Shown here in pieces: positions 29,907 through 49,985 of a stretch of 64,000 nt of DNA. The stretch lies in the NCBI GenBank assembly GCA_024653945.1, contig JANLIT010000002.1, forward strand, positions 11,940 through 75,939. Reading direction: 5' to 3'. A program made the position numbers and the translations under genes. Positions within the stretch are counted from its first letter, which is position 1, and every line of letters starts with the position of its first letter. The notes beneath the pieces are model-generated. The model was not told the DNA's origin, searched no databases, and saw nothing but the letters and a program-made list of their open reading frames with translations. Origin of the DNA: Candidatus Campbellbacteria bacterium. GTDB lineage: Bacteria > Patescibacteriota > Minisyncoccia > Phycocordibacterales > EsbW-18.

Positions 29907-30107
29907 TAACCCAAATAGAAACGGTTAGTGCTGGGCGAGCCTAAGCGAGGTTTAACCTCGCTAACCTCGGAAGTGCTTGTGACTTATAGTTACGACCGTA
30001 GCCATAAGTCACATTGAAATTGTGTCCGTAAGGTCGAACCTTACGTTTCTGAGGTAAATAAAAGAGCCGCCCGAGAGCGAGCGGCTCGTTGGGCGGCGGG
30101 TGGATAC

Positions 30108-30503
30108 CTACAGGATCGATTCCTCCTGAAAGGTGGGGATGTCCATACTCATGTTGTGCAACTCCTCGGCACCCCATGTTTGTGATTCTGTGTCGGTGTG
30201 GTGCGGACCACGGTCCTTGTGCCGAATAGCCCGTACAACGACCCACTGCTCGTCCTTAAAGTGCCACCGCGGATCCTTCTGTTTCGTGAACCACATTCCG
30301 ACTTCTCCGCCAGGAATCTTGAAGGAAACGACGACAAACTGTCTTCCTTCAGATTCCTCTTCTGTGGAGGTCATCGCCAGCACAACTGGCAACACGATGC
30401 GCCATTCGAAGACGCGATCCTGGTTGATGATCGCAGTAAGCACCATCAGGCCAAGCCGTTCCGGCACCGAGAACTGTGTTTCTTTTCCACGAATCTGCAC
30501 CAT
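30108..30503 (-). CDS. island hypothetical protein (131 aa)
   Basis: SD AAAGGAGAAG 8 nt before the ATG; terminator hairpin with T-run just downstream. Confidence 0.4.
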   Translation of the reverse strand: MVQIRGKETQFSVPERLGLMVLTAIINQDRVFEWRIVLPVVLAMTSTEEESEGRQFVVVSFKIPGGEVGMWFTKQKDPRWHFKDEQWVVVRAIRHKDRGPHHTDTESQTWGAEELHNMSMDIPTFQEESIL

Positions 30504-30746
30504 GGCGCTTCTCCTTTCCGGAGTAGACCGACAGGATTGTCGGCAGGCCTTTCCGGCCGTTTGGTACTGCTACCCGAACACTCGTCGGGGTTAATCTGGC
30601 AACACACTATGCTTATCTGCAAAGAAAGTCAAACCAAACGTCCCGCTTTCTCGGTCCTGTTGTGTTGGACACTGAGTGTCCAACACTCGGATACTGGAAA
30701 CAAAAGAGCCGCCCGAGAGCAAACGGCTCTTTGGACAGCCCAGACC

Positions 30747-31007
30747 CTACTTGGAAAGGATGGCAACTCCGATTATCAACTTCCGAGTAGCACCCCTATC
30801 TCGCAGAGTCCTCGATTTCTTGATCTTCTTCAAACTAAGGATTGCGTGGTGTTGCTTGCCCTCCTCATCTTGGACACTCAAATGCAGAGTTCCCATACCG
30901 CCCTCGAAAAGCCAGTTGGCAAGAGCAGAAGAAACAACCTCCTGCCCACCCAAAAGCGTTCCCGCGATACCAATGTTGCTCTGTGCGGTTACTTTTGGAT
31001 ATAGCAT
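30747..31007 (-). CDS. island hypothetical protein (~86 aa from the internal ATG MLYPKV..)
   Basis: SD AAAAAGGAGAAGG before the ATG at 31007; terminator hairpin downstream. Confidence 0.4.
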   Translation of the reverse strand: MLYPKVTAQSNIGIAGTLLGGQEVVSSALANWLFEGGMGTLHLSVQDEEGKQHHAILSLKKIKKSRTLRDRGATRKLIIGVAILSK

Positions 31008-31152
31008 TTCCTTCTCCTTTTTCCAAGGTCTATAGTTAAACAAATTCTGATAGGACAATACGCTTCTAGATAAGCAAAGTCAAACCAAACGTCCTTGTAT
31101 TTAAAGTCCCGCCCAGACATTGTCTGGGCGGGGCGTCGTACGAAGCGAGTCT

Positions 31153-31230
31153 CTATTTTTGAAAGACTTTGTAGGCACGGCGGTGCCGGAAAGAGAAAAC
31201 CGCCACCGGGCGGTTTTCGTGCTTTCAAAA
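31153..31230. repeat. palindromic terminator element directly 3' of secY
   Basis: ctatttttgaaagactttgtaggcacggcggtgccggaaagagaaaaccgccaccgggcggttttcgtgctttcaaaaata. Confidence 0.65.
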
Positions 31231-31249
31231 ATATGAGACGAGTGAAGAG

Positions 31250-32533
31250 CTAGTATTCACGTAATGACACTTGCGCGTCAATCTTTTTCACCAAATCAAT
31301 AATAACCGAGACGGCGATGAGGAGCCCTGTACCACCAACTGCAAGAGAGGTAATGCCAGTCAAACCTTGCATAATGAGAGGCAAAATAGCGATAACACCC
31401 AGAAATGAAGCGCCGAGAAGGGTTAACCGAGTGAGAATGTTTGCAATGTGTTCGGATGTTGATTGACCTGGGCGAACACCGGGAATAAACGCACCGCCCC
31501 GCTGAAGATTCTTTGAAATGGCATCTGGATCAAAGGTAACCGCGGTGTAAAAATACGTAAACAAAAACACAAGAAGGAAGTACGCGACACCGTACGACCA
31601 CCCATTATTCAAAAACCACTGCACGCCAGCAACCATCTTCTGCACGATTGGATTAGCAACTCCCGCAAGAAAGTTTGCAATCATACCTGGAAACAAGAGG
31701 ATGGAAAGCGCAAAAATGATTGGCATCACACCCGCTTGGTTCACGCGAAGTGGTAGGTATGTTGACACACCTCCGTATACTTTGTTGCCACGAATTTGTT
31801 TTGCGTAGGTAACAGGAATTGGTCGTTCTGCCTCTGTTACAATCACAACACCAATAACAATGATGAGTCCAACAACCAGAAAGGCGAGGTACATTGGCAA
31901 CTGTTCGGGTGTGAATGAAAATACGGTTGTTTGTAATGCGCTTGGAATACGTGACACAATACCTGCAAAGATGATGAGTGACATTCCGTTACCAATGCCA
32001 AATTCAGAAATAAGTTCACCAACCCACATGAGGAGTACCGAGCCCGCAACAATCACGATAATGTTGGTGATGAGTGACAAAGATGAGAGATCACCTATAA
32101 CCCCGTTTCGTTGGAGTAGTGTAATAAATCCAAATGCAGAGAGGGCGGCAAGTGGAACAGTGAGCAACCTAGAGTATTGTGCAATACGACGTCGTCCCGC
32201 CTCCCCTTCTTCATGAAACATCGCCTTGAGTTGTGGTGAAAGAATGGTGAGCAACTGCATGATGATTGAACCAGTGATGTATGGACCAACTCCGAGCATC
32301 ACAATTGAAAGACCTGAAAGTCCTCCTCCTGAAAAAAGGTTGAGAAGACCGAAAAATTGATTGTTTGCAAAAAACTGAGAAAGCGCATTAATATCAACAC
32401 CTGGAATTGGAATTGCGGCAAACACGCGCGTCAGTGCGAGTCCTGCAATAACAAAAAGAATGCGAGTTCGCAATTGGCGATCCCCCATAATAATGGAAAA
32501 TTTTTGTACAAAGTTTTTCATCATACGTAACAA
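31250..32533 (-). CDS. secY: preprotein translocase subunit SecY
   Basis: 10-TM SecY; likely true start is the MMKNF ATG near 32524. Confidence 0.9.
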   Translation of the reverse strand: MLRMMKNFVQKFSIIMGDRQLRTRILFVIAGLALTRVFAAIPIPGVDINALSQFFANNQFFGLLNLFSGGGLSGLSIVMLGVGPYITGSIIMQLLTILSPQLKAMFHEEGEAGRRRIAQYSRLLTVPLAALSAFGFITLLQRNGVIGDLSSLSLITNIIVIVAGSVLLMWVGELISEFGIGNGMSLIIFAGIVSRIPSALQTTVFSFTPEQLPMYLAFLVVGLIIVIGVVIVTEAERPIPVTYAKQIRGNKVYGGVSTYLPLRVNQAGVMPIIFALSILLFPGMIANFLAGVANPIVQKMVAGVQWFLNNGWSYGVAYFLLVFLFTYFYTAVTFDPDAISKNLQRGGAFIPGVRPGQSTSEHIANILTRLTLLGASFLGVIAILPLIMQGLTGITSLAVGGTGLLIAVSVIIDLVKKIDAQVSLREY

Positions 32534-32539
32534 TGTGCG

Positions 32540-32989
32540 TTATGCAACCGAACCTCCTGCCTTTTCAATACTTTCGCGCGCGGTGGCTGAGACAGTAACA
32601 CCGGAAACAACAAGCTTCTTGGTGAGTGCTCCCGTACCAAGAATCTTAACAATTGGATTATTACCCTCACGTGCACGAAGCACTTTCTTTGCAACAAGTG
32701 TCTGTGGAGTGACAGTGTCACCCGCATTGAATACTGCTTCAAGAACTGAAAGATTTACTGGAAAAGGCTTGCGACGATTGTCGTTTATGCTGTCTGCGCG
32801 GTGTTTACCGTATCCACGACGCTTTGGAAGCTTCTGAATCATGTCACGAAACTCTGGGCGAATGCGGTGTCCTGCGCGTGCCTTCTGTCCTTTGGTTCCA
32901 CGTCCTGACGTTTTACCACGCTTGCCACCACGACCAACGCGTTTGCCGGTCTTGTGTACTGTTTTTCTTTTGAGATTGTGGAGTTGCAT
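32540..32989 (-). CDS. rplO: 50S ribosomal protein L15
   Basis: MQLHNLKRK..GKRVGRGG.RGKTSGRG.KGQKAR. Confidence 0.9.
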   Translation of the reverse strand: MQLHNLKRKTVHKTGKRVGRGGKRGKTSGRGTKGQKARAGHRIRPEFRDMIQKLPKRRGYGKHRADSINDNRRKPFPVNLSVLEAVFNAGDTVTPQTLVAKKVLRAREGNNPIVKILGTGALTKKLVVSGVTVSATARESIEKAGGSVA

Positions 32990-32994
32990 AGTTG

Positions 32995-33078
32995 TGTAAA
33001 TCCGAAATTCGAATATCGAAATCCGAAAGAATATTTAATTTGTTTCGTGCTTCGTGCTTCGTGCTTCGTGCTTTGGTT
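32995..33078. repeat. r-protein leader repeat (short variant) upstream of rplO
   Basis: aaatccgaaattcgaatatcgaaatccgaaag..(ttcgtgc)x4. Confidence 0.55.
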
Positions 33079-33733
33079 TTTGTACGTTGTGCGTCTTAAT
33101 TTTCTTCGTGAGTTGTGAGAGTGCTTTAATTGTTGCGGTTGCGTTGTTGAGTTTGTTCTTACTACGAGAAAGAATCTTTGCACCAACACCACGAACTCCT
33201 GCGAGTTCAAGCACATCACGTACTGCACCTCCAGCAATAATACCGCGTCCTGGTGCTGGATAAAGCTTTACAATACCACTACTGTACTTCACTTGTACTT
33301 CGTGTGGAATTGAGCCGTCTTCAGTTTGTGAAATAACAATTTTATTTTTGAGTGCGCTTCGGTATGCCTTCTCTACTGCAAGTGCTGTGTCGCCCGCCTT
33401 ACCTGTGCCTACACCAACGGCACCACGGTGGTTTCCCGCAACAACACACACGCTGAAGCTAAAACGACGTCCTCCAGCAACCACACGAGTCACACGGCGA
33501 ATATCAATGATGCGCTGATCAAATTCAGGTTTAATACGGGGTGCGCGTCCGCGAGGAGTGCGACGAGAATTTTTCTGCATACGTCGGTCTTCACGTGATG
33601 CATTTACTGGCGCACTTCCTTTTGGAGCCACTACAACAACGTCTGCCTCAATGTCGGCAGCAAGTGTGTCCTCCACAACAGCGACCTCTGTTGTTTCAAT
33701 CTCGTTTTCTTTTGTACGAATATCGTCGGGCAT
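33035..33733 (-). CDS. rpsE: 30S ribosomal protein S5, with ~70-aa N-terminal extension
   Basis: core ..VTRVVAGGRRFSFSVCVVAGNHRGAVGVGTGKA..; no L30 gene between this and rplO. Confidence 0.9.
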   Translation of the reverse strand: MPDDIRTKENEIETTEVAVVEDTLAADIEADVVVVAPKGSAPVNASREDRRMQKNSRRTPRGRAPRIKPEFDQRIIDIRRVTRVVAGGRRFSFSVCVVAGNHRGAVGVGTGKAGDTALAVEKAYRSALKNKIVISQTEDGSIPHEVQVKYSSGIVKLYPAPGRGIIAGGAVRDVLELAGVRGVGAKILSRSKNKLNNATATIKALSQLTKKIKTHNVQKPKHEARSTKHETN

Positions 33734-33804
33734 AAATAATGGAAGTTGGAGGTTTGAGGTTAGAGGTTGGATGAGTTAGTGATTAGTTTTAGTTTGGTTA
33801 TTTG

Positions 33805-33824
33805 CCTGCCTGCCGGCAGGCAGG
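33805..33824. repeat. perfect 20-bp GC palindrome CCTGCCTGCCGGCAGGCAGG in the rpsE leader
   Basis: identical copy at 41223-41242. Confidence 0.6.
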
Positions 33825-33864
33825 AAATTTGATATTTGATATTGTTTCGTGTTTTGTACTTTTT

Positions 33865-34212
33865 TTAGAACTTTAATCCTCCTTTACGTGCACCATCTGC
33901 AACTTCTTTAATGACACCCGTGTATGCAAATCCTCCTCGATCAAATACTACAGCTGTAATCTTTTTTGTAAGTGATGTCTTTGCAACAATTTCTCCGAGT
34001 TCAAATGCTTTTTCTTTTGCAGTTCCCTTCTTCATTCCCTTTGTCGTACCGGCAACAAGCGTCATTCCTTTTGTATCATCAATAACTTGAAGCGTTGTGA
34101 ATCGATTTGATTTAAACACAGCCAAACGTGGGCGTACTGATGTACCAGAAATCTTCGCGCGGATACGTCCTTGTCGTCGAACTCGTTTTTCTTTTTTTGT
34201 TGGGGCTTTCAT
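33865..34212 (-). CDS. rplR: 50S ribosomal protein L18
   Basis: ..RPRLAVFKSNRFTTLQVIDD.. Confidence 0.9.
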   Translation of the reverse strand: MKAPTKKEKRVRRQGRIRAKISGTSVRPRLAVFKSNRFTTLQVIDDTKGMTLVAGTTKGMKKGTAKEKAFELGEIVAKTSLTKKITAVVFDRGGFAYTGVIKEVADGARKGGLKF

Positions 34213-34300
34213 ATAAAGTTGAAGTTGGAAGTTTGAGGTTGGGAGTTGGTTTTTGTTTTCTTTGTTATTTGCTATTTGTCATTTGCTATTTCCCCTTACT

Positions 34301-34834
34301 CTACGCTGCTCGTTTTCCTTCCTTACGACGAACCACTTCGTCAGAGTATCGGATTCCCTTTCCTTTGTATGGTTCTGGCACTTTTTGGGAACGAATTGTT
34401 GCAGCAAATTGTCCGAGAAGTTCTTTGTCTATAGAAGAAAGGGAGAGTGTGTTTTTCTCAATAGTGAGCGTAAGACCTTCAGGAATTGGGAGAACAACAG
34501 GATGTGAAAAACCAAGTTGCATGACCAAATCTTTTCCTTTCACTTCTGCGCGGTACCCAACTCCTTCAACAATAAGTTTTTTCTCGTAGAGTTTGTTGAC
34601 ACCCGCAACCATGTTCTTGATGTGTGATGCGTATGTTCCCCACAATGCTGACCACATTTCTGGATGCTCCTTTGGAGCAAGTGTCACCACGCCATCTGCA
34701 ACAGAAATGGAAATGTCGCTCTTGAACGTTCGGTGTAATTCACCAAGTGGTCCTTTTACGACAACGCTACCGTCAACAACAGTAATTTCTGTTTTTGGGG
34801 GAATTGTAATGTGTTGTTTGCCGATGCGGGACAT
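34301..34834 (-). CDS. rplF: 50S ribosomal protein L6
   Basis: MSRIGKQHITIP..V.V.GPLGEL. Confidence 0.9.
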   Translation of the reverse strand: MSRIGKQHITIPPKTEITVVDGSVVVKGPLGELHRTFKSDISISVADGVVTLAPKEHPEMWSALWGTYASHIKNMVAGVNKLYEKKLIVEGVGYRAEVKGKDLVMQLGFSHPVVLPIPEGLTLTIEKNTLSLSSIDKELLGQFAATIRSQKVPEPYKGKGIRYSDEVVRRKEGKRAA

Positions 34835-34835
34835 A

Positions 34836-34970
34836 CTATTTTTAAATTCGAAATACGAATATCGAAATTCGAAACAAATTCGAAGTTATAGATTTTAAAG
34901 TTTTAAGCATTTGAATATTCATATTTTGTGCTTGTTTCGAGCTTCGTGCTTCGATATTCGTGCTTATCTT
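34836..34970. repeat. ~130-bp r-protein leader repeat upstream of rplF
   Basis: tttttaaattcgaaatacgaatatcgaaattcgaaacaa...catttgaatattcatattttgtgcttgtttcgagcttcgtgcttcgatattcgtgcttat. Confidence 0.65.
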
Positions 34971-35363
34971 CTACCAGATCATAAAAAGCACTTCTCCTCC
35001 AACCTTCGCCTTTCGAGCTTGCTGACCAGTCATAACGCCTTCTGGTGTTGAAAGAATGAGGTGTCCATAGCCGTTCTTCACTGGGTACACTTCTGTTGAG
35101 CCAATGTAGACACGACGAGAGGGTTTTGAAAGACGTTTTACTCCGTGAATGAGTGCGTCACCGTTTTCATCAAATGCGAGCGTTGCTTCAATTTTGTTTG
35201 TTTTCTTTCCTTTGTGGTCAACGTTTGCAAGGTATCCTTCTTTTTTGAGAACAACTGCAACAGCGTCTTTAAGACGTGAGTGCGGAACAGAGACGGTCTC
35301 AACACCAACACGTGCTGCGTTTTGAAGAGCTGTTATGAAGTTTGCGAGTGGGTCGGTGGTCAT
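34971..35363 (-). CDS. rpsH: 30S ribosomal protein S8
   Basis: MTTDPLANFITALQNA..; C-terminal ..GGEVLFMIW. Confidence 0.9.
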   Translation of the reverse strand: MTTDPLANFITALQNAARVGVETVSVPHSRLKDAVAVVLKKEGYLANVDHKGKKTNKIEATLAFDENGDALIHGVKRLSKPSRRVYIGSTEVYPVKNGYGHLILSTPEGVMTGQQARKAKVGGEVLFMIW

Positions 35364-35414
35364 GGTAGTAAGTAGTATGTAGAAAGTAGTAGGTAGAAAG
35401 TAGTAAGCAAAAAA

Positions 35415-35684
35415 TTACCAAGATGCCTTCTTAATACCTGGAATCATTCCTTTATTTGCAAGTTCGCGGAAACAAATACGACAGAGACCGAATTCGCGCA
35501 TGTATCCTCGTGGGCGACCACATTTAAAACAACGGTTTTTTGTTCGAACTGGAGATGCGTTCTTGCGCAATGCCTGAAGACCCTCGTAATCGTGGGCCTC
35601 TTTCAATGCAGTTCGCTTTGGAGCGGATTTTGCCTGCATCACTGCTCTTTTTTTGTCTCGTGCAATAATTGCTTTTCGGGCCAT
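35415..35684 (-). CDS. rpsN: 30S ribosomal protein S14 (zinc-ribbon type, CxxC..CxxC)
   Basis: [13 protein letters not shown]...[38 protein letters not shown]; ATG at 35684 (track ORF starts at 35726). Confidence 0.85.
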
Positions 35685-35912
35685 ATACTTTTTTCCAAAA
35701 AAAATTCTGCCTCTCGATGTGTCCATGGACCAATTCGGACGAATTGGCCGGCTGACAGATAACGAGGCGGTGGTCTCCTCCGGCGCCTATTGGCTCTGAG
35801 AGGACAAGCTCCCTATTTAGAAGCCCCACCATACTACCAGAAGTCTCCAAAAAGGGCAAGAAAAAGAGAAGCCCCGCTAGCACAAAGTGCGCCGGCGGGG
35901 CGGAAAGAACAA

Positions 35913-36761
35913 CTACTTTGACCAGGATTGTCTGCCCTTTGCCGAAGCAATTCGGCACCACAACAGGGATTGGGCTATGAGCCGATTTCGATGCCGTCGC
36001 TCTTCCTCATCACGAAGGTCTCTTGGTGTCTTGTGCTTACCACCACCGAGGAGAGCCCCAACGGCAAGGCTGTTTATCAACCACTGTTCCTTGTATTTCC
36101 CGAACAATTCATCCGACACAAATTCAAGGTAGTGGAGAATCTGAGACGCTTGATCTCGTTCAGAAATCTTCCTGCTCTTTTCCTTTTCGGATGGTAGCCG
36201 AGTTCCACCGGTAAACGTGAGCATATCGGCAGAACCCCAAAGCGCAAGTGCTCGAACCAGTGGCCCTGATTCCTGATAGTGGAAGTGCCACGGGCGCCCG
36301 TTCGTCCTAGGACCCACTAGAAGCATGGATATCGCTTCTCTCCAGGTGTGAAATTCCTTGCAGAGAAACTGCTGGATTCGAGACGGGTACGGAGGACGTA
36401 GCAGACATTCGTGCACAACCCCAAAGAACGAAATGAGGTCATTACGAAGAATGGCCGACCCTTCTTCCTTTTCGTCTCGAGAAAGCAGGTAGGTCTTGCC
36501 CAAAACCTCATCTGAAGCGATGACTCTGCGTGCTGTGTCCGCGACCCTGCCCTCTTCACCAACTTCGCGAAACACATTGAGCAGAAAGCGGGCCTTGTCT
36601 TTGAACAACTGACGCCCTTCCTCATCCCCTTCGATGGGCGGGTCATTCCAAAGACTGCCACAGGCGTAGAGCAGGCCTATGGCCTCCGCTTCCGTACTGA
36701 CCCTCTGCCAGCACTCCTCGAACTGCTCCCACGTACTAATGACCAACAACTCTTTTTTCAC
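35913..36761 (-). CDS. GC-rich (~58%) 282-aa hypothetical protein inserted between rplE and rpsN
   Basis: GTG start with SD AAAGGAGATCCACC; composition step relative to the flanking r-protein genes. Confidence 0.5.
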   Translation of the reverse strand: MKKELLVISTWEQFEECWQRVSTEAEAIGLLYACGSLWNDPPIEGDEEGRQLFKDKARFLLNVFREVGEEGRVADTARRVIASDEVLGKTYLLSRDEKEEGSAILRNDLISFFGVVHECLLRPPYPSRIQQFLCKEFHTWREAISMLLVGPRTNGRPWHFHYQESGPLVRALALWGSADMLTFTGGTRLPSEKEKSRKISERDQASQILHYLEFVSDELFGKYKEQWLINSLAVGALLGGGKHKTPRDLRDEEERRHRNRLIAQSLLWCRIASAKGRQSWSK

Positions 36762-36854
36762 GGTGGATCTCCTTTCTATAGTGTCGCTCGATGTTTGAGC
36801 GACGGGTCGATCCGCCGTTTATTCTCCACACACAGACACACAAGTCAAGCTACG

Positions 36855-36897
36855 AAGAAAACCGCCTGCTGGCGGTTTTCGTGCTTCTACAAAATAT
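36855..36897. repeat. partial palindromic terminator element directly 3' of rplE
   Basis: gaaaaccgcctgctggcggttttcgtgcttctacaaaatatgag; shares the ttcgtgctt..aaaatatgagacgag tail with 31200-31240. Confidence 0.55.
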
Positions 36898-36912
36898 GAG
36901 ACGAGCGGAGAG

Positions 36913-37485: not shown

Positions 37486-37490
37486 ATCTT

Positions 37491-37606
37491 TTTAAATCCG
37501 AAATCCGAATATCGAAATCCGAAACAATATCTAATTTCTAAGGTTTTAAACATTTGAACATTCATACTTTGTGTTTGTTTCGAGTTTCGTACTTCGATAT
37601 TCGTAC
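37491..37606. repeat. ~130-bp r-protein leader repeat upstream of rplE
   Basis: aaatccgaaatccgaatatcgaaatccgaaacaatatctaatttctaaggttttaaacatttgaacattcatactttgtgtttgtttcgagtttcgtacttcgatattcgtactt. Confidence 0.65.
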
Positions 37607-39003: not shown

Positions 39004-39017
39004 CTACTCTCCGCAAG

Positions 39018-40230: not shown

Positions 40231-40269
40231 ATAATAATTAATTTCAAAGTTACAATATCAAATTTCAAA

Positions 40270-40674: not shown

Positions 40675-40753
40675 ATAAAGTGGGGGTTGGAAGTTTGATG
40701 TTAGAGGTTGGATGAGTATTTTTGTTACACGTTACATGTCTTGTGGTACATGC

Positions 40754-41101
40754 TTACTTCTTCGCCACTGTTGCATCAGCTGCAGTTTTTGCTGATTTAG
40801 CTGCTGTAATTTCGGCATCCTTCTTTGCTGTATCAAGTGCTTTCTGCATTTGACCTCCGTGACGCTTAAATGTTTTTGATGGTGAAAATTCACCAAGACG
40901 GTGACCCACCATTTCCTCCGTTACAAACACATCAATGAATGACTTACCGTTGTGAACGGCAAATGTGTACCCAACCATCTCGGGTGAAATCACACTTGGG
41001 CGTGCCCACGTCTTAATAGGGCCATCTGTGGCTTTTTGCTTCGCAACCTTCTCCATAAGGCGAACGTTGAGATATGGTCCTTTTTTGAGTGACCGTGTCA
41101 T
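40754..41101 (-). CDS. rpsS: 30S ribosomal protein S19, with Ala/Lys-rich C-terminal tail
   Basis: [34 protein letters not shown]. Confidence 0.9.
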
Positions 41102-41222
41102 AGTGAATAAAAATCGGCCTCGTGGCCTTTGGAGATAATAGCAAAAAGTGAGCGGATGTCAAACCCACTCTTATGATTCGGCGACTTGAGTTAACCTCAG
41201 ATATTTTCCAACTTCTAATTTC

Positions 41223-41242
41223 CCTGCCTGCCGGCAGGCAGG
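41223..41242. repeat. perfect 20-bp GC palindrome CCTGCCTGCCGGCAGGCAGG in the rpsS leader
   Basis: identical to 33805-33824. Confidence 0.6.
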
Positions 41243-41375
41243 CAACCTCCATTATTTTAGACTTTTCCACAGGGGTTGCTTTTTTGTATTGATACGGTAT
41301 AGTGCTTGAGGATGTTATTACGAGCGCACATACCCTATCCGCGGTTCAGCGGGTGGGTTTCTGGAGGAAGTAGCT

Positions 41376-41579
41376 ATGTGCAAGAAGTTTGAAGTGGTGG
41401 AACAAGCCCATCGAGAAAAGCGTAGAATCCGAGTCACTGGGCCTGGAACCAACTTCACCGGCACCGTCGAGAAGGTTAACCCCTCTCTCCTTTCGGCCGA
41501 AATCAGAGGTGAGGGGACTCACACCCACTTCTTCGCTGGCGGAGAAAGCGCCCGCGACTTCACTGTCACGCTGGTCTAG
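41376..41579 (+). CDS. GC-rich small protein (67 aa) within the rpsS-rplB insertion
   Basis: SD GGAGGAAGTAGCT before the ATG; ~60% GC. Confidence 0.4.
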   Translation: MCKKFEVVEQAHREKRRIRVTGPGTNFTGTVEKVNPSLLSAEIRGEGTHTHFFAGGESARDFTVTLV

Positions 41580-41757
41580 CTCCACAGGGCCAGAACCAAG
41601 AACCCCAAAAAGGCGGCAATCCTACAAGGAAGCCGCCTTTACTCATTTCTGAAACATACAGAGTAAGTTTCTTTTTTATATTTAACGTACGGAGTGAACC
41701 CCGCCCTATATACAAACCCCGCCTGCAGTCTTGCGGGCGGGGTTACAACCAAGCAAT

Positions 41758-42150
41758 TCAGTGGACTGTTTCTCCTGACGGGTAAAACATCTTCCAGTAG
41801 TGACGTCCCATACCAGTAATGCAGAAGCATTGAACGAGAGATGTTCTCCCGAAGACTAGCCCAACGAACTCGGGCTGGCGCTGAAGGCTGAACTCCACCA
41901 ACCCATCGGTGCACATTGCCCGAAGTTCGAGCAGTATCTTTTCCTCAGTGGTCACCCTTAGAGCAACCAGTGGGGAGAACGCCCGAACCCTCTTCACCAA
42001 AGACGGGAGGGACATCCAATCGTCGGCAGCAACCAAATGCTTGAGAATTTCCTCTTTGAGAGTCGGGCCACTCTTCTTGCCCCAATCTTCTTCGAGAAGT
42101 TCCAAGGCTCCCCACAACAAGGTCCTTACCCTGTTCCAGTTTGTGGCCAT
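41758..42150 (-). CDS. GC-rich hypothetical protein (130 aa) within the rpsS-rplB insertion
   Basis: SD AAAGGAGACTCGAA before the ATG. Confidence 0.4.
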   Translation of the reverse strand: MATNWNRVRTLLWGALELLEEDWGKKSGPTLKEEILKHLVAADDWMSLPSLVKRVRAFSPLVALRVTTEEKILLELRAMCTDGLVEFSLQRQPEFVGLVFGRTSLVQCFCITGMGRHYWKMFYPSGETVH

Positions 42151-42279
42151 TTCGAGTCTCCTTTTTCTGGTTTAGTCTCGATAATCAAATCTGATAAAAA
42201 TGTAGCCGAAAATAAAGTCACTGTCAAGTTTTGTTGAACATCTGTTGACAATCTTTCAACAACAAACTATACTCATTTC

Positions 42280-43062
42280 ATGTCCCCTACTACAAAACTC
42301 CGTGAACTCGGACTCAATAACAAAGAAATCACTGTGTATCTCGCCTTACTCAAACACGGCCGACGAACACCTGCCGCACTCTCACAACTTACAAAGATAA
42401 ACCGTGCGACGGTATACAGTGTTGCAAGAAATCTACAATCAAAGGGTCTTATTGCTGAGGATATCAGCGGTCATTCTCGTTTCTTTCTACCCCTTCCTCC
42501 CAACAATTTGAATCAACTTATTGATCGCCCAAAACGTGAGCTACAAGAAAAGGAAGATCTTGTTCGCAACACCATTGAAGAGTTATACCAACTCGCTTCA
42601 GAACATGAATATCCTGTTCCAAAAATTCGTTTTGTCCAGGAAGGCGATCTCGAAGATTTTTTGTTTGGTAATACAGTGAGATGGGAGAAGAGTGCTCTGG
42701 AACAAGACGGAACATGGTGGGGCTTTCAAGACCATAGTTTTGTGGAGGTGTATGAAAAGTGGATTCACTGGTCGTGGACAACACTTGAGGGAAAGGATGT
42801 GCGTCACCGCGCAAAAATCATAACGAACACATCGGAAATTGAAAAAAGGTTGCAGCCAAAATATTCAAGAGAAAAGCGCGACATGAGATTTCTCCCTGGA
42901 GAAAAGTTCATGTCCACGATGTGGGTCGTCGGCGAATACGTTATTATGATTGCAACCAAACATCACCCGTTTTATCTCGTCGAGATTCATGATGTGTTAC
43001 TTGCGCACAACATGCGAGAAATGTTTAAAAAACTTTGGGGGCAAACTCGCGAAATTACCTAA
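42280..43062 (+). CDS. TrmB-family winged-helix transcriptional regulator
   Basis: N-terminal HTH LGLNNKEITVYLALLKHGRRTPAALSQLTKINRATVYSVARNLQSKGLI plus a ~170-aa C-terminal domain. Confidence 0.65.
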   Translation: MSPTTKLRELGLNNKEITVYLALLKHGRRTPAALSQLTKINRATVYSVARNLQSKGLIAEDISGHSRFFLPLPPNNLNQLIDRPKRELQEKEDLVRNTIEELYQLASEHEYPVPKIRFVQEGDLEDFLFGNTVRWEKSALEQDGTWWGFQDHSFVEVYEKWIHWSWTTLEGKDVRHRAKIITNTSEIEKRLQPKYSREKRDMRFLPGEKFMSTMWVVGEYVIMIATKHHPFYLVEIHDVLLAHNMREMFKKLWGQTREIT

Positions 43063-43101
43063 CACTAAAACACCTGCGGATATACCGCAGGTGTTTTAGT
43101 G

Positions 43102-43944
43102 TTATTTTTTCTTGCCGACGCGACGTCGTGTGACGATGAGGAAGTTTGAGTACTTCTTTGGCTTGCGTGTCTTGTGTCCCTTTCCGACGTTCTTTCCGTG
43201 TCGTGTGCGCGCTCGGCGGTGTCCACGTCCCTGACGGCCTTCTCCTCCTCCGTGTGGGTGGTCTACTGGGTTCATCGCTGTTCCACGTACCTTTGGTTTC
43301 TTTCCGAGCCATCGATTGCGTCCTGCCTTTCCGAGATTAACGAGTTTATTTTCTGGATTTGAAACTTCTCCGACTGATGCCCATGCGTTTTCAGATACTT
43401 TGCGGGTCTCCGTTGATGGCATTTTCAAAAGTGTATAGCCACCATCATGAGCAATCACTTCAGCAAATACTCCAGCACTTCGTGCAATCTTTGCCCCATC
43501 GTTTGGCTTTCCTTCAATGTTGTACACGAACGTACCAACAGGAATCTTTGCGAGTGGAAGTCGGTTTCCAGGAGTAACGGGTGCTTTTTCAGACGCGAGG
43601 AATGTTGCTCCAACTTTGAGCGACTGTGGTGCAAGAATGTATCGGCGTTCACCATCTGCATAGCAAATAAGTGCAATAAATCCTGAACGGTTTGGATCGT
43701 ACTCAATTGTTTCAACACGTGCAGGAATATCTTTTTTGTTGTATACAAAATCAACATCACGGAATGCTCGTTTGTGACCAGCACCGATACTGATTGTGGT
43801 ACGTCGCCCAAACGCATTGTGTCCAAAACTGCGTCGGAATCCTTTCGTGAGCGCCTTGTGTGGTTTTCCGGCAATCAAAAGCTTGCGGTATTCAATACCG
43901 GTCATTCCACGGCGTCCTGCACTTGTTGGTTTATAGTGTTTCAT
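43102..43944 (-). CDS. rplB: 50S ribosomal protein L2
   Basis: 280 aa; ..GNVLPL..IP.GT.VHNIE..PGKGA. Confidence 0.9.
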   Translation of the reverse strand: MKHYKPTSAGRRGMTGIEYRKLLIAGKPHKALTKGFRRSFGHNAFGRRTTISIGAGHKRAFRDVDFVYNKKDIPARVETIEYDPNRSGFIALICYADGERRYILAPQSLKVGATFLASEKAPVTPGNRLPLAKIPVGTFVYNIEGKPNDGAKIARSAGVFAEVIAHDGGYTLLKMPSTETRKVSENAWASVGEVSNPENKLVNLGKAGRNRWLGKKPKVRGTAMNPVDHPHGGGEGRQGRGHRRARTRHGKNVGKGHKTRKPKKYSNFLIVTRRRVGKKK

Positions 43945-44070
43945 AAAAATAAATCTGAAATTCGAATATCGAAATCCGAAACAATATCTAATTTCTAAAT
44001 TCTAAGGTTTTAAACATTTGAATATTCATATTTTGTGCTTGTTTCGTATTTCGAAATTCGTGCTTCGTAT
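43945..44070. repeat. ~130-bp r-protein leader repeat upstream of rplB
   Basis: aaatctgaaattcgaatatcgaaatccgaaacaatatctaatttctaaattctaaggttttaaacatttgaatattcatattttgtgcttgtttcgtatttcgaaattcgtgcttcgtat. Confidence 0.65.
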
Positions 44071-44532
44071 TTATACTATTTCGATAGTATCTCCCTTTTT
44101 AAGCGTTACGTACGCCTTCTTTCCACCCCCTACGGTTGCCGCTTTTCCACGTCGTGACAGTTTTACCTTTGTTGCAATCTTTGTCACGCGAACGTGTACT
44201 GGTGTGATACCGTACACATCTTTTATCGCGGATGCAATGAGACTCTTGTTTGCATATGACGCGACATCAAAGACATACACATTGTTTTGAGACACGCTCG
44301 TTGCTTTTTCAGTGATGCGTGGGCGCGTGAGAATATCTGCGTTTACTTTTCCAGACGCAATTGTTTGTTTGATTTTCTTTTCAGGTTGCTTTTTCTCTAC
44401 GGCAACAACTTTCTTTGGTGCGTCGTCATGAATATCGTCTTTCACGTGTACTGTGTCGGCAACAGCTTTGCGCGCAAACAAAGAGGTCTTTGCCTTTGCA
44501 CCGCTTGAGTTGTCTTTTTTTCGAAATAACAT
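44071..44532 (-). CDS. rplW: 50S ribosomal protein L23, with ~50-aa Lys-rich N-terminal extension
   Basis: core ..DILTRPRITEKATSV...KAYVTLKKGDTIE; start MLFRKK in the same context as the rplP start MLFPKK. Confidence 0.8.
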   Translation of the reverse strand: MLFRKKDNSSGAKAKTSLFARKAVADTVHVKDDIHDDAPKKVVAVEKKQPEKKIKQTIASGKVNADILTRPRITEKATSVSQNNVYVFDVASYANKSLIASAIKDVYGITPVHVRVTKIATKVKLSRRGKAATVGGGKKAYVTLKKGDTIEIV

Positions 44533-44664
44533 ATATTTTTTAAATTCGAAACCCGAATGTCGAAATCCGAAGCAGGTTCGAAATCATGGGCGTTTGGGTT
44601 TTAAATATTTGAACATTCATATTTTGTGTTTGTTTCGAGTTTCGTGTTTCGATATTCGTGTTTA
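44533..44664. repeat. ~130-bp r-protein leader repeat upstream of rplW
   Basis: tttttaaattcgaaacccgaatgtcgaaatccgaagcaggttcgaaatcatgggcgtttgggttttaaatatttgaacattcatattttgtgtttgtttcgagtttcgtgtttcgatattcgtgtttac. Confidence 0.65.
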
Positions 44665-45423
44665 CTACTGTTTCTTTTCAACCCACCGTTTTACGGCTTC
44701 ATCTGGATTAACCACAATGAGGTATGTGTATGTCATTGCGTCAACGGCATTGAGATTGCGAACCTCTTCAACGGCAACATTTCCTAGGTTTCTAAAGCTT
44801 TTCTTTACCATCTCGTCTGCTGTTGTTGTAAGAATGAGCGCTGCGTTTTGCTTTTTACCAATCATTTTTTCAAAACCTGCAATCTTTGAAAATACACCGA
44901 GAATATCTTTGGCTTCTGCTGTTTTTGGTGTACCAAATGTAATTGAGTCAACAAAGAGAATTTCTTTATCCTTAAGTTTGCGTGAGAGGACGCTGAAAAG
45001 AGCTGATGCGCGCATCTTTTTAGGAATCGTCACACTGTAATCCTTGTCTGAACGTGGGCCGTGAGTCACACCTCCTCCCTTCCATAATGGAGAGCGGATT
45101 GAACCGTGACGTGCGCGTCCTGTTCCTTTTTGTCGCCATGGCTTTTTGCCTCCACCACGAACTTCACCGCGACCTTTTGTGTGAGCACCTGCACGACCTG
45201 CGCGTGCATTGTTCTGCATGCCGAGTACCACTTGGTGCACGAGGTCTGCGTTCCAATTCACACCAAAAATCTGCCCCGGAAGTGTAACGGTGCTTACCTC
45301 TTTTCCTTTGATATCAAAAATAGGAGCTTTCAAATCCTTGCCGTCTTTTGCAACAACAACCTTCTTTGGTTTGAGTGCCTTAGTTGTTTTTACTGTTTTC
45401 TTTTGTGCTGGTTTTTTTTCCAT
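44665..45423 (-). CDS. rplD: 50S ribosomal protein L4, with N-terminal extension
   Basis: 252 aa L4/L1e family. Confidence 0.9.
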   Translation of the reverse strand: MEKKPAQKKTVKTTKALKPKKVVVAKDGKDLKAPIFDIKGKEVSTVTLPGQIFGVNWNADLVHQVVLGMQNNARAGRAGAHTKGRGEVRGGGKKPWRQKGTGRARHGSIRSPLWKGGGVTHGPRSDKDYSVTIPKKMRASALFSVLSRKLKDKEILFVDSITFGTPKTAEAKDILGVFSKIAGFEKMIGKKQNAALILTTTADEMVKKSFRNLGNVAVEEVRNLNAVDAMTYTYLIVVNPDEAVKRWVEKKQ

Positions 45424-45464
45424 TTTGTTTGAATTCTTTGGAAGCTAAGCTTCCAAAAGGAAGC

Positions 45465-46103
45465 TTAGCTTCCCATCACTTCAACAACGGTACCACGTCG
45501 TCCTGGGACTGCTCCGGAAATAAAAATCTGTCCGTTTGCAACGTCAACGAGAAGAACCTTGAGGTTTTTAACCGTGATTCGGTCTCCACCCATACGTCCA
45601 CCCATACGACGTCCTTTCATAACACGCTGAACTCCACCAGCTCCGATTGAACCTGGCTCACGCTCAGAGTGTTTCTGTCCGTGTGTTCGGCGACCTCCTT
45701 TGAAACCGTGTCGCTTCACCACACCCTGAAAACCTTTTGATTTGGATGTACCTGAAACGGTCACTGTGTCGCCAGGAGTAAACACACCCGCATCAATCAT
45801 AGTCCCGAGTGGGAGTTCTGCAGGATCAGAAACCGGAAATTCCATAAATCCCGCAAACATACCCTTTGACTTTTGTGCGTTGTTCACATTTTTTTCTTTT
45901 CGTACGTCATACCCAACCTGCACAGCAGTGTACCCGTCAATATCTTTTGTTTTGATTTGTGTGACAACGGCAGGAGAAACACGAATAAGCGTTGCTGGGT
46001 GCACAACACCGTTGTCATCAAAGACTTGTGTCATTTCTTGTTTTGTTCCGACGAGAAATTTCATGAATTTGTTTTGAATACGAGTGAGCCCTGGCTCGGA
46101 CAC
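45465..46103 (-). CDS. rplC: 50S ribosomal protein L3
   Basis: ..KQEMTQVFDDNG...ATLIRVSPAVVTQIKT; 212 aa. Confidence 0.9.
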   Translation of the reverse strand: MSEPGLTRIQNKFMKFLVGTKQEMTQVFDDNGVVHPATLIRVSPAVVTQIKTKDIDGYTAVQVGYDVRKEKNVNNAQKSKGMFAGFMEFPVSDPAELPLGTMIDAGVFTPGDTVTVSGTSKSKGFQGVVKRHGFKGGRRTHGQKHSEREPGSIGAGGVQRVMKGRRMGGRMGGDRITVKNLKVLLVDVANGQIFISGAVPGRRGTVVEVMGS

Positions 46104-46297
46104 ATCCGAGCTAGGGCTCTAGTGTCCAGAGGTTCCTGTGGGAACATGGCGCATACGTGGGGACTACTATACACGACCACCTTTCAGAGTGCAAGTTCTC
46201 AGTGATAAAATACTTGACAAACATACTTTTCGTAGTACCATACACACCAGAACCTGACCGAAATGAATTCGGCAGAATTGACCTTTGGGAGGATGGG

Positions 46298-46603
46298 ATG
46301 ACGAAAAAACTCAACGGAAGGTTCATGGTGTTGCAGATGCGCCTAAACAAACTGCTCTTCGAGCAGATCAAGCTTAACGCTAGAGTTGCCACGTACGAGA
46401 CACAGAAGGCAACGGTGCGAGGAGAAATCAACTTCCTATTGCGTAGCCAGGGAGCGAGGACTATCTTGGGTGAAAGGGTCTATGCACTGATTGAGTCAAA
46501 CCACGCCGATGCATCTCAACGGGCCAGCGCAAACAATCTCGAAATCATGGGAATCATGATCGAGATGAACAAAGAGATTCCCGCACCCGATTCGAAACTC
46601 TGA
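46298..46603 (+). CDS. small hypothetical protein (~101 aa), cassette gene 1 between rplC and rpsJ
   Basis: SD GGGAGGATGGG before the ATG; followed by terminator cgaccagctagtacagctggtcgttttttt (46613-46650). Confidence 0.45.
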   Translation: MTKKLNGRFMVLQMRLNKLLFEQIKLNARVATYETQKATVRGEINFLLRSQGARTILGERVYALIESNHADASQRASANNLEIMGIMIEMNKEIPAPDSKL

Positions 46604-46767
46604 TGTCCACAACAACGCCTCGACCAGCTAGTACAGCTGGTCGTTTTTTTATCCAGCACTTAAAGTTAAGTGCTGGATTTATTCCGATTTGATTTTTGAT
46701 TGACAAGACACACCACAAAGAATATTGTTGCCCCAGAAATGTATCCCAACTCCAGAAAGGAGCGCGT

Positions 46768-47085
46768 ATGAAATTTGCCATCGCCATAGGTCCAAAAGGT
46801 GGTGGACCTCACAAAGGCTTCATCGCTGAATCTGAGGAAAACATCAAAATACGAACCGCACGTCTTCGAGAACATGGATTCACCATCGTTCCTATCAACG
46901 TTTCCCTTCTACCGTCTGACACTGAGGTCGCAAAGATGTTTGCGGAGAGTCAAATTCACCGGTCTATCGACCCAACTACCACCGAACTCTTTGAGGCCGT
47001 CATGAACTTGGGAATCAAGATTGGCTGGAAAGCTAGGGGACAAGACATCGTCTCCCACATCAGTGGTTGTTGTCGAAAAAAGTAA
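46768..47085 (+). CDS. small hypothetical protein (~105 aa), cassette gene 2; paralogous context to gene 3
   Basis: sigma70-like promoter TTGACA-17-TATTGT (about 46692-46720), SD AGGAGCGCGT, terminator cacgaccagcccaccagctggtcgtttttg (47107-47140). Confidence 0.5.
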   Translation: MKFAIAIGPKGGGPHKGFIAESEENIKIRTARLREHGFTIVPINVSLLPSDTEVAKMFAESQIHRSIDPTTTELFEAVMNLGIKIGWKARGQDIVSHISGCCRKK

Positions 47086-47210
47086 CTTCAACCAAACACG
47101 CTCTCACGACCAGCCCACCAGCTGGTCGTTTTTGTTTTATTGACAAAACAGACCATGAAGAATAGTGTTACCCCAGAATCAATCACGCGTTCCACATAAG
47201 GAGAAAAGTT

Positions 47211-47510
47211 ATGAAGCTCGGCGTCGTACTTCGCTCTGATGGTACAGTTTTCGGAGACATCATGTCTCCAACCGCGGAAGGCTTCGGCAACGCAATGGCT
47301 CGTGTACCAGATGGATTCATGGTCATTGAGGTCTCCGTCGACCTCGATCCAGAACAAGCTTCTGCGGTTCAGAAGCTTGGAAACAACGAGCTCTCAATGG
47401 AAGAGCTCCGACGCATAAGCCATTTGATCCGTCTCGGAATTCAGATGGGAATTGAGGTTCAGAAAGTACTCGCCATCTTCCGCATCCATGATGGCCGTCG
47501 AAAAAAGTAG
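47211..47510 (+). CDS. small hypothetical protein (99 aa), cassette gene 3
   Basis: promoter TTGACAAAACAGACCATGAAGAATAGTGTT, SD AAGGAGAAAAGTT, near-identical terminator (47527-47560). Confidence 0.5.
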   Translation: MKLGVVLRSDGTVFGDIMSPTAEGFGNAMARVPDGFMVIEVSVDLDPEQASAVQKLGNNELSMEELRRISHLIRLGIQMGIEVQKVLAIFRIHDGRRKK

Positions 47511-47639
47511 CGACCGCCGGATGTACCCCACGACCAGCCCACCAGCTGGTCGTTTTTGTCTTAAAACATACGGAGCGAGCCCTAAAGGATTGCTGTTTGT
47601 AGTCAATCACTTCGTTCTTGAACAAACAGGGAACCTCTA

Positions 47640-47758
47640 TTTTTTGAATTTTTTTGTATTTAACATACGAAGTGAGCCTATTACAACAAAGAAACTCTCG
47701 GAGCCCGATGAGGGTGAGAGTGAGTGCGTTTTCAGTAGAAAACGACACGTGTTCTTTG
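47640..47758 (+). repeat. dispersed ~100-nt element (candidate small RNA / cassette-border repeat): ..tttaacatacgaagtgagcc..aaactctcggagcccgatgagggtgagagtgagtgcgttttcagtagaaaacgacacgtg
   Basis: homologous copies at 51588-51700 (opposite strand), 53340-53400 (3' part) and 41670-41712 (5' part). Confidence 0.55.
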
Positions 47759-47780
47759 TTGTAAGTAGGTGAGCGGAGAG

Positions 47781-49976: not shown

Positions 49977-49985
49977 GTTGTCACC

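Follow-up and report, generated by a model that had tools for sequence, protein, structure and literature searches.

Many hot spots of horizontal gene transfer (HGT) were found to contain no mobile elements, with recombination taking place at the flanking core genes (Oliveira, Touchon, Cury, Rocha 2017, PMC5635113). Insertions in the ribosomal cluster of Gammaproteobacteria and Bacilli were found to be rare, the detailed cases being located at the operon joints rpoBC-str, str-S10, and rplL-rsmC, and duplication, transposons, and HGT from close relatives were proposed as mechanisms (PMC8046335). The locus described here is the S10-spc ribosomal protein (r-protein) cluster of a Candidatus Campbellbacteria metagenome-assembled genome (MAG; NUW02 locus tags), contained in a stretch of 64,000 nucleotides (nt) referred to as the window, where four junctions of the cluster were found to be occupied by small accessory genes (cassettes) with predicted expression signals of their own. 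As in the HGT hot spots, one core-gene interval was found to contain different accessory genes in close relatives, with rapid turnover of this content and no recognisable mobile elements, whereas the sites of the window are located inside the most conserved bacterial gene cluster, coincide exactly with the positions of intrinsic terminators, recur across a class-level lineage instead of one species, and contain a class of cargo with its own translation signal. The locus is similar to the cases of PMC8046335 in that non-ribosomal genes enter the cluster at operon-operon joints, whereas its breaks lie within the classical S10 (rpsJ/rplC, rplB/rpsS) and spc (rplE/rpsN) operons, are filled in about half of the species, and contain orphan cargo. 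The S10-spc region is a textbook case of frozen gene order and a backbone of phylogenomics and MAG binning in the candidate phyla radiation (CPR), and here it was found to be split at four fixed, non-classical points.

Phage morons, reportedly described by Juhala et al. 2000 and by Hendrix and colleagues, are autonomous units of promoter, open reading frame (ORF), and terminator located between conserved genes. By sequence, the cassettes of the window are similar to morons in their predicted own promoter and terminator, in their position between genes that are adjacent in relatives, and in their deviant base composition, whereas they are located in a chromosomal r-protein cluster and not in a phage or prophage, have no phage homologues, and keep their frames while the ORFs change. 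Integrons likewise hold stacks of small units at one fixed site, each with a single ORF and unrelated in function, and their content varies between relatives. Unlike integrons, the window was found to contain no integrase family and no attC-like conserved sites, the cassettes were flanked by dissimilar terminator hairpins, each had a predicted promoter of its own, and several sites and both orientations were occupied.

The cluster tuf-rpsJ...secY-adk-map is located on the minus strand of the window and was found to contain breaks at the rpsJ/rplC, rplB/rpsS, rplE/rpsN, and secY/adk junctions; all four interruptions proposed in the initial annotation were present at the places it had given, as judged by the window ORFs and translations. 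The tuf gene (48315-49517) is followed by rpsJ, encoding S10 (47781-48149; identified by its translation, 94% identical to its counterpart in the relative L001), which is the last gene of the first predicted transcription unit. The native units that follow were found to contain rplC-rplD-rplW-rplB (43102-46103 by ORFs, 43102-46064 up to the leader), rpsS-rplV-rpsC-rplP-rpmC-rpsQ-rplN-rplX-rplE (36913-41101), and rpsN-rpsH-rplF-rplR-rpsE-rplO-secY (31250-35726 by ORFs, 31250-35684 up to the leader), followed by the presence of adk (29313-29906) and then map. The rpmD gene was missing from the rpsN...secY unit, and its absence is usual in CPR bacteria. Single co-transcribed S10 and spc operons of the E. 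coli or B. subtilis type would contain no terminators or promoters from rpsJ to rpsQ or from rplN to secY, and the sequence signals of the cluster were found to include both.

The nearest relatives, obtained from S3-based searches, were L001, L081 (complete genome CP064977.1), L082, and L083, with ~80-90% nucleotide identity to the window in the flanking r-protein genes; exact look-ups of the window S19 and S3 matched no other contigs. When gaps were taken between annotated ORFs in the window, between tblastn ends in L001, and between called genes in L081 and L083, the rpsJ/rplC gap was found to contain 1677 nt in the window, 215 nt in L001, 820 nt in L083, and 781 nt in L081, followed by 2000, 535, 639, and 1064 nt, respectively, at rplB/rpsS, 1186, 271, 223, and 226 nt at rplE/rpsN, and 1343, 85, 77, and 687 nt at secY/adk. 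Despite their similarity, the window, L001, L081, and L083 were found to contain differing cassettes, or none, at each junction. Homology was found to break off at the upstream stop codon and to restart in the conserved promoter and leader regions of rplC, rpsS, and rpsN. In three of the gaps given in the initial annotation, the 65-190 nt on the downstream side belong to native promoter and leader sequence of rpsN, rpsS, and rplC. Relatives without the window cassettes still contained a terminator after rpsJ, rplB, rplE, and secY, followed by the promoter of the next unit, and the window inserts therefore appear to be lineage-specific fillings of pre-existing boundaries. The punctuated superoperon proposed at first was retained insofar as the sequence signals point to independently transcribed units, but the terminator-like hairpins and the promoters of the boundaries are ancestral in the clade and are not new cuts. 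Identical inserts of native composition in related genomes, which would have marked ancient native genes, were not found; the inserts were absent or different in L001, L081, L082, and L083. The cassette architecture itself was found again in CP064977.1, a complete genome, and in assemblies made independently.

The same junctions were compared in 80 species-level loci of related Paceibacteria, also obtained from S3-based searches. Gaps longer than 400 nt were found at rpsJ/rplC in 20/38 loci, at rplB/rpsS in 36/53, at rplE/rpsN in 32/60, and at secY/adk in 8/41 (20-68%), followed by tuf/rpsJ (8/35), adk/map (4/44), and rplW/rplB (1/49), and sixteen other junctions contained none. A sense-strand terminator-like hairpin within at most 200 nt was found after rpsJ in 26/38 loci, after rplB in 30/53, after rplE in 26/60, after secY in 18/41 (43-68% at these four junctions), after tuf in 9/35, and after adk in 3/44. 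No such hairpins were found at 17 other junctions (0/46 to 0/80), and the classical joint of S10 and spc, rpsQ/rplN, contained none in 78 loci. Among the 24 species in which all four junctions were spanned, at least one was filled in 19 and all four in 2. These sequence signals suggest a lineage-wide division of the cluster into transcription units, with the unit boundaries serving as hot spots. The cargo was found to be diverse: 220/247 gap ORFs, those of the window included, were singletons by BLASTP, and the Pfam families of the 113 gap ORFs of at least 110 amino acids (aa) were scattered, none of them dominant and hardly any related to mobility; kinases, an ABC/MacB/HlyD set, helix-turn-helix proteins, and one reverse transcriptase were among them. 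A Shine-Dalgarno (SD) sequence was found before 60/165 gap ORFs of at least 80 aa (36%) and before 9% of r-protein ORFs in the same lenient scan, and a strict SD test was positive for 12/801 r-protein-cluster genes (1.5%) of the 80 species.

In the window, the inserts were found to contain eight small ORFs and one native-like gene encoding a TrmB regulator. The GC content at third codon positions (GC3) of native genes was 0.374±0.051 (range 0.23-0.49, n=43), and that of the eight other cassette ORFs was 0.48-0.65 (z = 2.1-5.4; Mann-Whitney p = 6e-9 against native genes). An SD core was found upstream of 8/9 insert genes, with canonical SD-to-start spacing in the eight, compared with 2/43 native genes. 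The composition profile therefore set the inserts apart as the initial annotation had expected, with several corrections: the 57% GC given for one island was replaced by a measured insert GC of 0.47-0.53, the GGAGG reported as their SD was mostly AAGGAG, and the TrmB gene, with a GC3 of 0.41 and no SD, was not of the GC-rich, SD-led type. Bacteroidota are known for SD-independent translation with few SD-led genes. For part of the Parcubacteria, SD-poor translation has been reported, and the anti-SD motif often escaped detection (PMC9297842). The window is similar to Bacteroidota and Parcubacteria in the absence of SD from core genes and in the small minority that keeps a strong SD, whereas the SD-led minority here was found to consist of hypervariable accessory cassettes and not of a regulatory core gene. 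No report of r-protein-boundary accessory cassettes as an SD-led minority was found in the literature searches.

The reading that we favour by a modest margin over even chances is that autonomous expression slots are located at the operon boundaries, with ORF turnover confined to a lineage-restricted pool. The terminators after rpsJ, rplB, rplE, and secY and the promoters or leaders before rplC, rpsS, rpsN, and adk would divide the cluster into the units (tuf)-rpsJ, rplC-rplB, rpsS-rplE, rpsN-secY, and adk-map. A gene located at such a boundary would leave co-transcription and r-protein stoichiometry intact, and the boundaries may therefore act as hot spots for accessory genes. In each cassette, a small GC3-rich ORF would be preceded by a near-consensus sigma-70 promoter, a structured 5' untranslated region (5'UTR), and AAGGAG as a strong SD and followed by a strong terminator, whereas the native genes appear to be leaderless or to lack SD. 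The inserts of the window would be the current fillings of this genome, transcribed on their own and not by read-through; we infer from the sequence signals that the cassettes and the five native units are transcribed independently. The ORFs would be replaced far faster than the regulatory frames and the flanking core genes. Turnover would proceed by homologous recombination in the lineage-restricted pool, with the r-protein genes and the promoter, 5'UTR, and terminator frames serving as arms, and extreme sequence divergence in place would contribute as well. We infer exchange by homologous recombination from four things: the cassettes are distributed patchily and incongruently, their frames are conserved, marks of mobile elements are lacking, and the hot spots of PMC5635113 offer an analogy. 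Such exchange is made plausible by the natural competence shown in a CPR lineage, the Saccharibacteria (PMC10187176).

A retained frame with changing ORFs was found in the rplB/rpsS insert (41167-43101; borders from BLASTN against the relatives). The plus-strand expression platform of an antisense slot (41270-41375) was found to contain a CTTGCT -35 box, a GGTATAGT -10 box, a 5'UTR hairpin, and GGAGG, and by alignment this promoter and 5'UTR were common to the window, L001, L081, and L083. In the window the platform is followed by c3c (41376-41579, plus strand; 67 aa, GC3 0.65), which is 45% identical to an ORF of 69 aa in the matching slot and orientation of L081, whereas the slot of L001 and L083 was found to contain an ORF of 67-70 aa unrelated to c3c, yet L083 is the closest to the window in the flanks. 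One shared promoter and 5'UTR is thus associated with two unrelated ORF families, the distribution of which departs from the similarity of the flanking genes. The remaining genes of the insert were the TrmB-family winged-helix regulator (42280-43062, plus strand; 260 aa), with a consensus-matching promoter at 42245-42273 (plus), and c3b (41758-42150, minus strand), a 130-aa ORFan with AAGGAG and a GC3 of 0.63. The promoter of c3b (42199-42227, minus) is divergent from TrmB, its predicted terminator is located at ~41711-41742 (minus; hairpin scan), and no homologue of c3b was found among 5.8e9 proteins or in the IMG/VR scan. The N-terminal domain of the regulator matched PF01978 (49.9 bits against a cut-off of 25.6, E = 3e-13, residues 7-74), no family was assigned to its C-terminal 180 residues, and a TrmB gene was found at rplB/rpsS in none of the relatives. 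A bidirectional 20-bp terminator hairpin (43060-43104) is located between rplB and the convergent TrmB gene. The TrmB regulator and two GC-rich small genes announced for this junction in the initial annotation are these three.

The chief rival is vertical inheritance: the cassettes would be old lineage-specific genes that have always resided at the boundaries, evolve very fast, and are often lost, and their GC3 richness and strong SD would reflect selection for a special mode of expression and not transfer. It is compatible with the favoured reading, the two not being exclusive, but taken by itself it was considered rather unlikely. Highly divergent homologues of c1b, c2, c3c, and c4b (the cassettes of the other junctions being described below) were found at the matching junction in other Campbellbacteria, with matching lengths for c1b (131 vs 123 aa), c4b (105 vs 105), and c3c (67 vs 69) and the same orientation for c3c and c4b, as vertical descent would predict; the conserved promoters and 5'UTRs and a ratio of nonsynonymous to synonymous substitution rates (dN/dS) below 1 agree with it as well. 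These homologues also limit the word foreign, used for the cassettes in the initial annotation, which holds for their distinct composition and SD and for their absence or difference in the nearest relatives. Vertical descent is harder to reconcile with L001 and L083, where c1, c2, and c4 were entirely absent, with the two slot families at rplB/rpsS distributed against the flank similarity, and with the 220/247 singletons among gap ORFs. Composition speaks on both sides: cassette ORFs were found to be SD-led with a GC3 of ~0.5-0.8 in hosts with native GC3 from 0.35 to 0.65, which suits a special expression mode, but high GC3 is kept in fast-evolving genes despite the AT drift of the host. Across the loci the slope of gap-ORF GC on host GC was 0.46, gap ORFs being GC-richer in low-GC hosts and GC-poorer in high-GC hosts. 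GC-biased gene conversion by itself was rejected as an explanation of the high GC3, the gap ORFs of high-GC hosts being GC-poorer than the host.

The secY/adk insert (29907-31249, minus strand) was found to contain two cassettes, where the equivalent gap contains 85 nt in L001 and 77 nt in L083, and L081 and L002 contain one cassette each. The first, c1a (30747-31007), is an 86-aa orphan ORF preceded by AAGGAG and by a consensus-matching promoter of the TTGACT-17-TAxTGT type (31055-31083) and followed by a GC-rich hairpin with a T-run as terminator (~30700-30730). The second, c1b (30108-30503; 131 aa, GC3 0.65, AAGGAG), is preceded by a TTGACT-17-TAGTGT promoter (30604-30632; promoter and leader together 30504-30632) and followed by a terminator (30064-30087) similar to those of c1a and of the L081 and L002 cassettes; all of these features are on the minus strand. 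The two SD-led genes recognised here in the initial annotation are c1a and c1b, each with predicted promoter, AAGGAG, and terminator. The 100-nt leader of c1b was 86% identical to L002 19442-19542, and the secY/adk gap of L002 was found to contain an ORF of 123 aa behind the matching leader, 34% identical to c1b over 59 aa and followed by a similar terminator. The frames were conserved and the ORFs were not, the leader of c1b showing 86% identity and its protein ~34%. The leader contained a hairpin, CUCCGGAAAGGAG, which pairs the SD; its fold was not significantly stabler than shuffles (z = -1.1), and covariation was uninformative at two sequences. No homologue of c1b was found in a word-indexed search of 5.8e9 proteins, and the leader core gave 0 matches against metagenome contigs.

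The rplE/rpsN insert (35878-36911, minus strand), where L001 and L083 contain only ~30 nt and a terminator, was found to contain c2 (35913-36761), the GC-rich gene of 282 aa noticed at this place before, which encodes a predicted alpha-solenoid protein of a rare family and is SD-led. Its consensus-matching promoter (36821-36848) is followed by a structured 5'UTR (36762-36813; helix and hairpin comparison), and the 3' half of its terminator (35861-35903) and the terminator behind rplE in L001 and L083 are homologous; all are on the minus strand. The 5'UTR was found to combine a 7-bp hairpin with an outer helix (GGATC/GATCC) and the invariant AGAAAGGAG, and was kept in 7/7 independent loci (eight contigs, L086 and L087 containing the same gene). 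The outer helix, of 5-7 bp, occurred in three compensating versions (GGATC/GATCC, GGACC/GGTCC, and GCCCA/TGGGC), four covarying pairs were found in the inner 7-bp hairpin, and the start codons of the family lie 0-6 nt past the outer helix. Two homologues of c2 were found in the word-indexed search (5.8e9 proteins) and 38 clusters in an exhaustive profile search. Those of L084 and L088 are located directly upstream of rpsN, as in the window, whereas that of L086 is located between rpsG and a gene for an EF-type GTPase, and those of L089 and L090 adjoin ftsA and a NUDIX gene. A c2-family profile matched only the protein of the window itself among all 247 gap ORFs of the 80 loci, a c2 sub-alignment gave 0 matches against metagenome contigs, and no match was found by phage tblastn or in an IMG/VR scan with the c2 family. 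The c2-family genes of public assemblies (L084-L090) were found nearly all on contigs of 1.2-2.7 kb that end near the cassette. This suggests that assemblies break at these variable junctions, most c2 homologues being on 1-3 kb contigs, and such breaks may contribute to the r-protein genes missing from MAGs (compare PMC9723686).

That the genes are not real, the cassettes being non-coding structured spacers or assembly or binning chimeras with ORFs arising by chance, was regarded as very improbable, chiefly from the properties of c2. This cassette showed a dN/dS of 0.18 against the L084 homologue and is under purifying selection as a real gene, its family contained the 38 clusters, and its AlphaFold2 model was a confident all-alpha solenoid (predicted local distance difference test, pLDDT, of 89 with 36 sequences and of 40 with 3) with generic structural matches only. 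Coding-type composition, with GC2 below both GC1 and GC3, was found in the three cassette ORFs compared position by position, namely c2, c3b, and the longer ORF that contains c4a. Chance ORFs are in keeping with the orphan status of most cassette ORFs and with the several structured 5'UTRs that are more conserved than the ORFs behind them, but they do not account for canonical SD-to-start spacing in 8/9 genes, nor does a chimera account for the repetition of the architecture in CP064977.1 and in independent assemblies. A search of Rfam with the gathering threshold on the whole window, and in E-value mode on 29-50 kb, returned nothing relevant.

The rpsJ/rplC insert (46196-47780; BLASTN borders), absent from L001 and replaced by other cassettes in L081 and L083, was found to contain three small genes on the plus strand, opposite to the operon, each with a TTGACA promoter-like sequence and a terminator of its own, as the initial annotation had described. 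The first, c4a (46298-46603), is a 101-aa orphan ORF with GGGAGG and a GC3 of 0.63, a singleton at the 90% cluster level, with TTGACA-16-TACCAT (46214-46241) back to back with the rplC promoter and an intrinsic terminator of a hairpin followed by a T-run (46621-46643). It is followed by c4b (46768-47085; 105 aa, AAGGAG), with a consensus-matching TTGACA-17-TATTGT (46700-46728) and a terminator found by the hairpin scan (47106-47129), and by c4c (47211-47510; 99-aa orphan ORF, AAGGAG), with TTGACA-17-TAGTGT (47140-47168) and a terminator (47530-47553) whose hairpin is identical to that of c4b. The near-identical frameworks of c4b and c4c suggest a tandem duplication, and the similarity of the two proteins was marginal (19% over 69 aa, pairwise E=0.005). 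A weak positional homologue of c4b, of 105 aa and 24% identity, was found antisense in the rpsJ/rplC gap of L002. Repeat debris was found on the minus strand between rpsJ and c4c (47560-47780), including a 22-nt motif, common to 41672-41693 and 47650-47671, and a 68-nt repeat. The repeat (47689-47756) was also found at 51586-51630 (96% complementary within the window) and at L001 2107-2174 (95.6% identical); the copies are 45-68 nt long, the repeat holds a weak AT-rich hairpin, and one copy lies directly after rpsJ, where relatives carry a strong terminator. The rpsJ/rplC cassettes of L083 (1097-1309 and 1435-1617) and L081 (4646-4819 and 4926-5174) were found to encode small Cys-rich proteins on the operon strand, with zinc-ribbon-like CxxC...CxxC motifs; one is common to L081 and L083, and none is related to c4a, c4b, or c4c.

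Recent import of the cassettes from outside the lineage, as phage, plasmid, or host-bacterium DNA brought by a mobile element or illegitimate recombination, was judged improbable, more so than vertical descent. Composition and SD use sharply unlike those of native genes, the lack of homologues of c1b and c3b among 5.8e9 proteins, and the absence of the inserts from the nearest relatives would fit such an origin. Against it, the only homologues found were located at the same or similar r-protein junctions of related Paceibacteria, and the regulatory frames were common to the relatives. When Pfam, PHROGs, and PADLOC were searched with the nine cassette proteins, only the winged helix-turn-helix domain of TrmB was returned, weakly in PADLOC, and phage tblastn, IMG/VR, and BFVD gave no matches for the cassette proteins searched. 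The homology to phage or plasmid genes for which the initial annotation had proposed a search was accordingly not found, and no integrase or defence signal was present. Integrase and transposase Pfam families were absent from the inserts and from all other window ORFs, a scan of the window found no tRNA, and none of the inserts was bounded by direct or inverted repeats, so that the marks of a prophage, genomic island, insertion sequence, or transposon were lacking. Target-site duplications and terminal inverted repeats were considered as insert borders and rejected, none being found.

The dispersed repeats that the initial annotation had placed at the insert borders were present at 31138-31257 and 36856-36921, but they are native terminator modules and not insertion scars. 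The module was found in four copies of 100-120 nt with 79-92% identity, in sense orientation directly after native stop codons: after infC (3063-3182, plus strand), after ndk (21426-21525, minus), after secY (31138-31257, minus), and, as its 5' half, after rplE (36856-36921, minus). It contained a terminator hairpin, AAAACCGCC...GGCGGTTTT, and 12-nt inverted ends, TATTTTTGAAAG, and members of the family were found after secY and rplB in L081 and L083.

Several points weigh against autonomous slots with exchanging ORFs. The promoters and terminators assigned to the cassettes are consensus matches, and a generic promoter and terminator scan of the region was not enriched overall in comparison with shuffles (32 vs 23.9±4.5). 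A strong terminator after rpsJ is absent from the window. Comparative support for translation was found for none of c1a, c3b, c4a, and c4c. The synonymous divergence (dS) of c3c was 2.5, compared with 0.4-0.6 in the flanks, but the value rests on 66 codons, and selection on codon usage in the r-protein genes could account for the difference. Most of the relatives are MAGs, and the gap lengths based on tblastn may be inflated by up to ~150 nt. The steady GC3 richness of cassettes in low-GC hosts was found to be more than exchange among relatives alone can account for. Tsurumaki et al. (2022, PMC9297842) detected the anti-SD motif in just 48% of Parcubacteria.

A wider, tentative proposal, which we consider unlikely as it stands, is that Paceibacteria contain two classes of genes that differ in their rule of initiation, and that persistent slots with swapped or diversifying ORFs form an integrase-free platform for changing accessory proteins. 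The core genes would be leaderless or without SD, and the second class would consist of hypervariable small-protein genes in conserved expression slots, each slot combining a strong promoter and a terminator with a structured 5'UTR by which the invariant AAGGAG is sequestered or framed. These slots would be anchored where terminators delimit the units of the r-protein cluster and at the borders of other operons. If so, the accessory proteins of minimal episymbionts, perhaps involved in host interaction, might be switchable as a group at translation through the availability of the anti-SD. Independently of this proposal, the sharp split between cassette genes with SD and core genes without it makes the use of the anti-SD in Parcubacteria directly testable, and the junctions offer a defined and easily aligned place for sampling the fast-evolving accessory proteins of uncultivated episymbionts.

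SD-led small ORFs with a GC3 of 0.57-0.90 and predicted promoters and terminators of their own were also found outside the S10-spc cluster, at 72-239, 15211-15741, 17434-18155, and 49770-50519 on the minus strand, so that nothing singles out the ribosomal cluster as a target in this genome. One pair of outside cassettes is located directly upstream of the tuf promoter, and three SD-led ORFs with no Pfam match were found upstream of tuf in L081.

The native rplC promoter, TTGCAC-17-TATAGT (46166-46195), is followed by a leader of ~100 nt (46065-46165), and the whole region 46065-46195 is common to L001, L081, and L083. The rpsS promoter, TTGACA-16-TATTAT with an extended TG (41135-41162), was kept in the relatives, and the rpsN promoter, TTGCCC-17-TAGTAT (35831-35859), lies in a region of promoter and conserved leader that spans 35685-35860. 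The promoter region of adk (29907-29960), shared with L002 only, contained a hairpin and TATACT 6 nt before the ATG; all of these are on the minus strand. The position of this box makes it likely that the adk mRNA is leaderless. Similar -10 boxes (TATACT, TATAAT, and TATGAT) were found 6-9 nt before the ATG of first genes in native units, at 29907-29925 (adk) and upstream of 15882-17162, 18395-19015, and 872-1321, and they suggest leaderless mRNAs at these unit starts.

The leaders of rpsN (35685-35860) and rplC (46065-46165), of ~100-190 nt, were conserved in L001, L081, and L083 and had no match in Rfam. The second genes of the two units are rpsH (S8) and rplD (L4), and the leaders are candidate r-protein autoregulatory leaders in non-classical positions; regulation of the rplC and rpsN units by L4 and S8 would follow by analogy with the paradigm of E. 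coli. The operon map is redrawn by these boundaries, and the autoregulatory map would probably be redrawn as well, with separate leaders before rplC and rpsN. Other native leaders were found to consist of 7-nt-periodic, G-poor repeats of the CCAACTT, CTACTTT, and TTTGTCA types, without SD and some with CCUCC-like strings. They were located upstream of rpmI (3302-3344), rplT (3536-3578), rpsE, rplR, rplN, rpsQ, and rplV, as well as at 1455-1513, 35361-35414, 54972-55045, and 62195-62298, and possibly provide a context for SD-independent initiation.

An intercistronic element of 131 nt was found to fill the exact stop-to-start space between r-protein genes. Its copies are located at 34838-34968, 37481-37611, 37824-37954, 39445-39575, 43945-44075, 44536-44666, and 54148-54278, with a partial copy at 32986-33041, and were found to contain 7-nt-periodic CGAAxxx units and two imperfect inverted arms of ~35 nt, followed by the presence of TTTAAAAAATATG at the end. 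The element was not found at the equivalent junctions of L001 and L083, and related copies were found at different junctions in L081 (15696-15786 and 18110-18153). It looks like a miniature inverted-repeat transposable element (MITE) or a repetitive extragenic palindromic (REP)-like element that resides inside transcription units.

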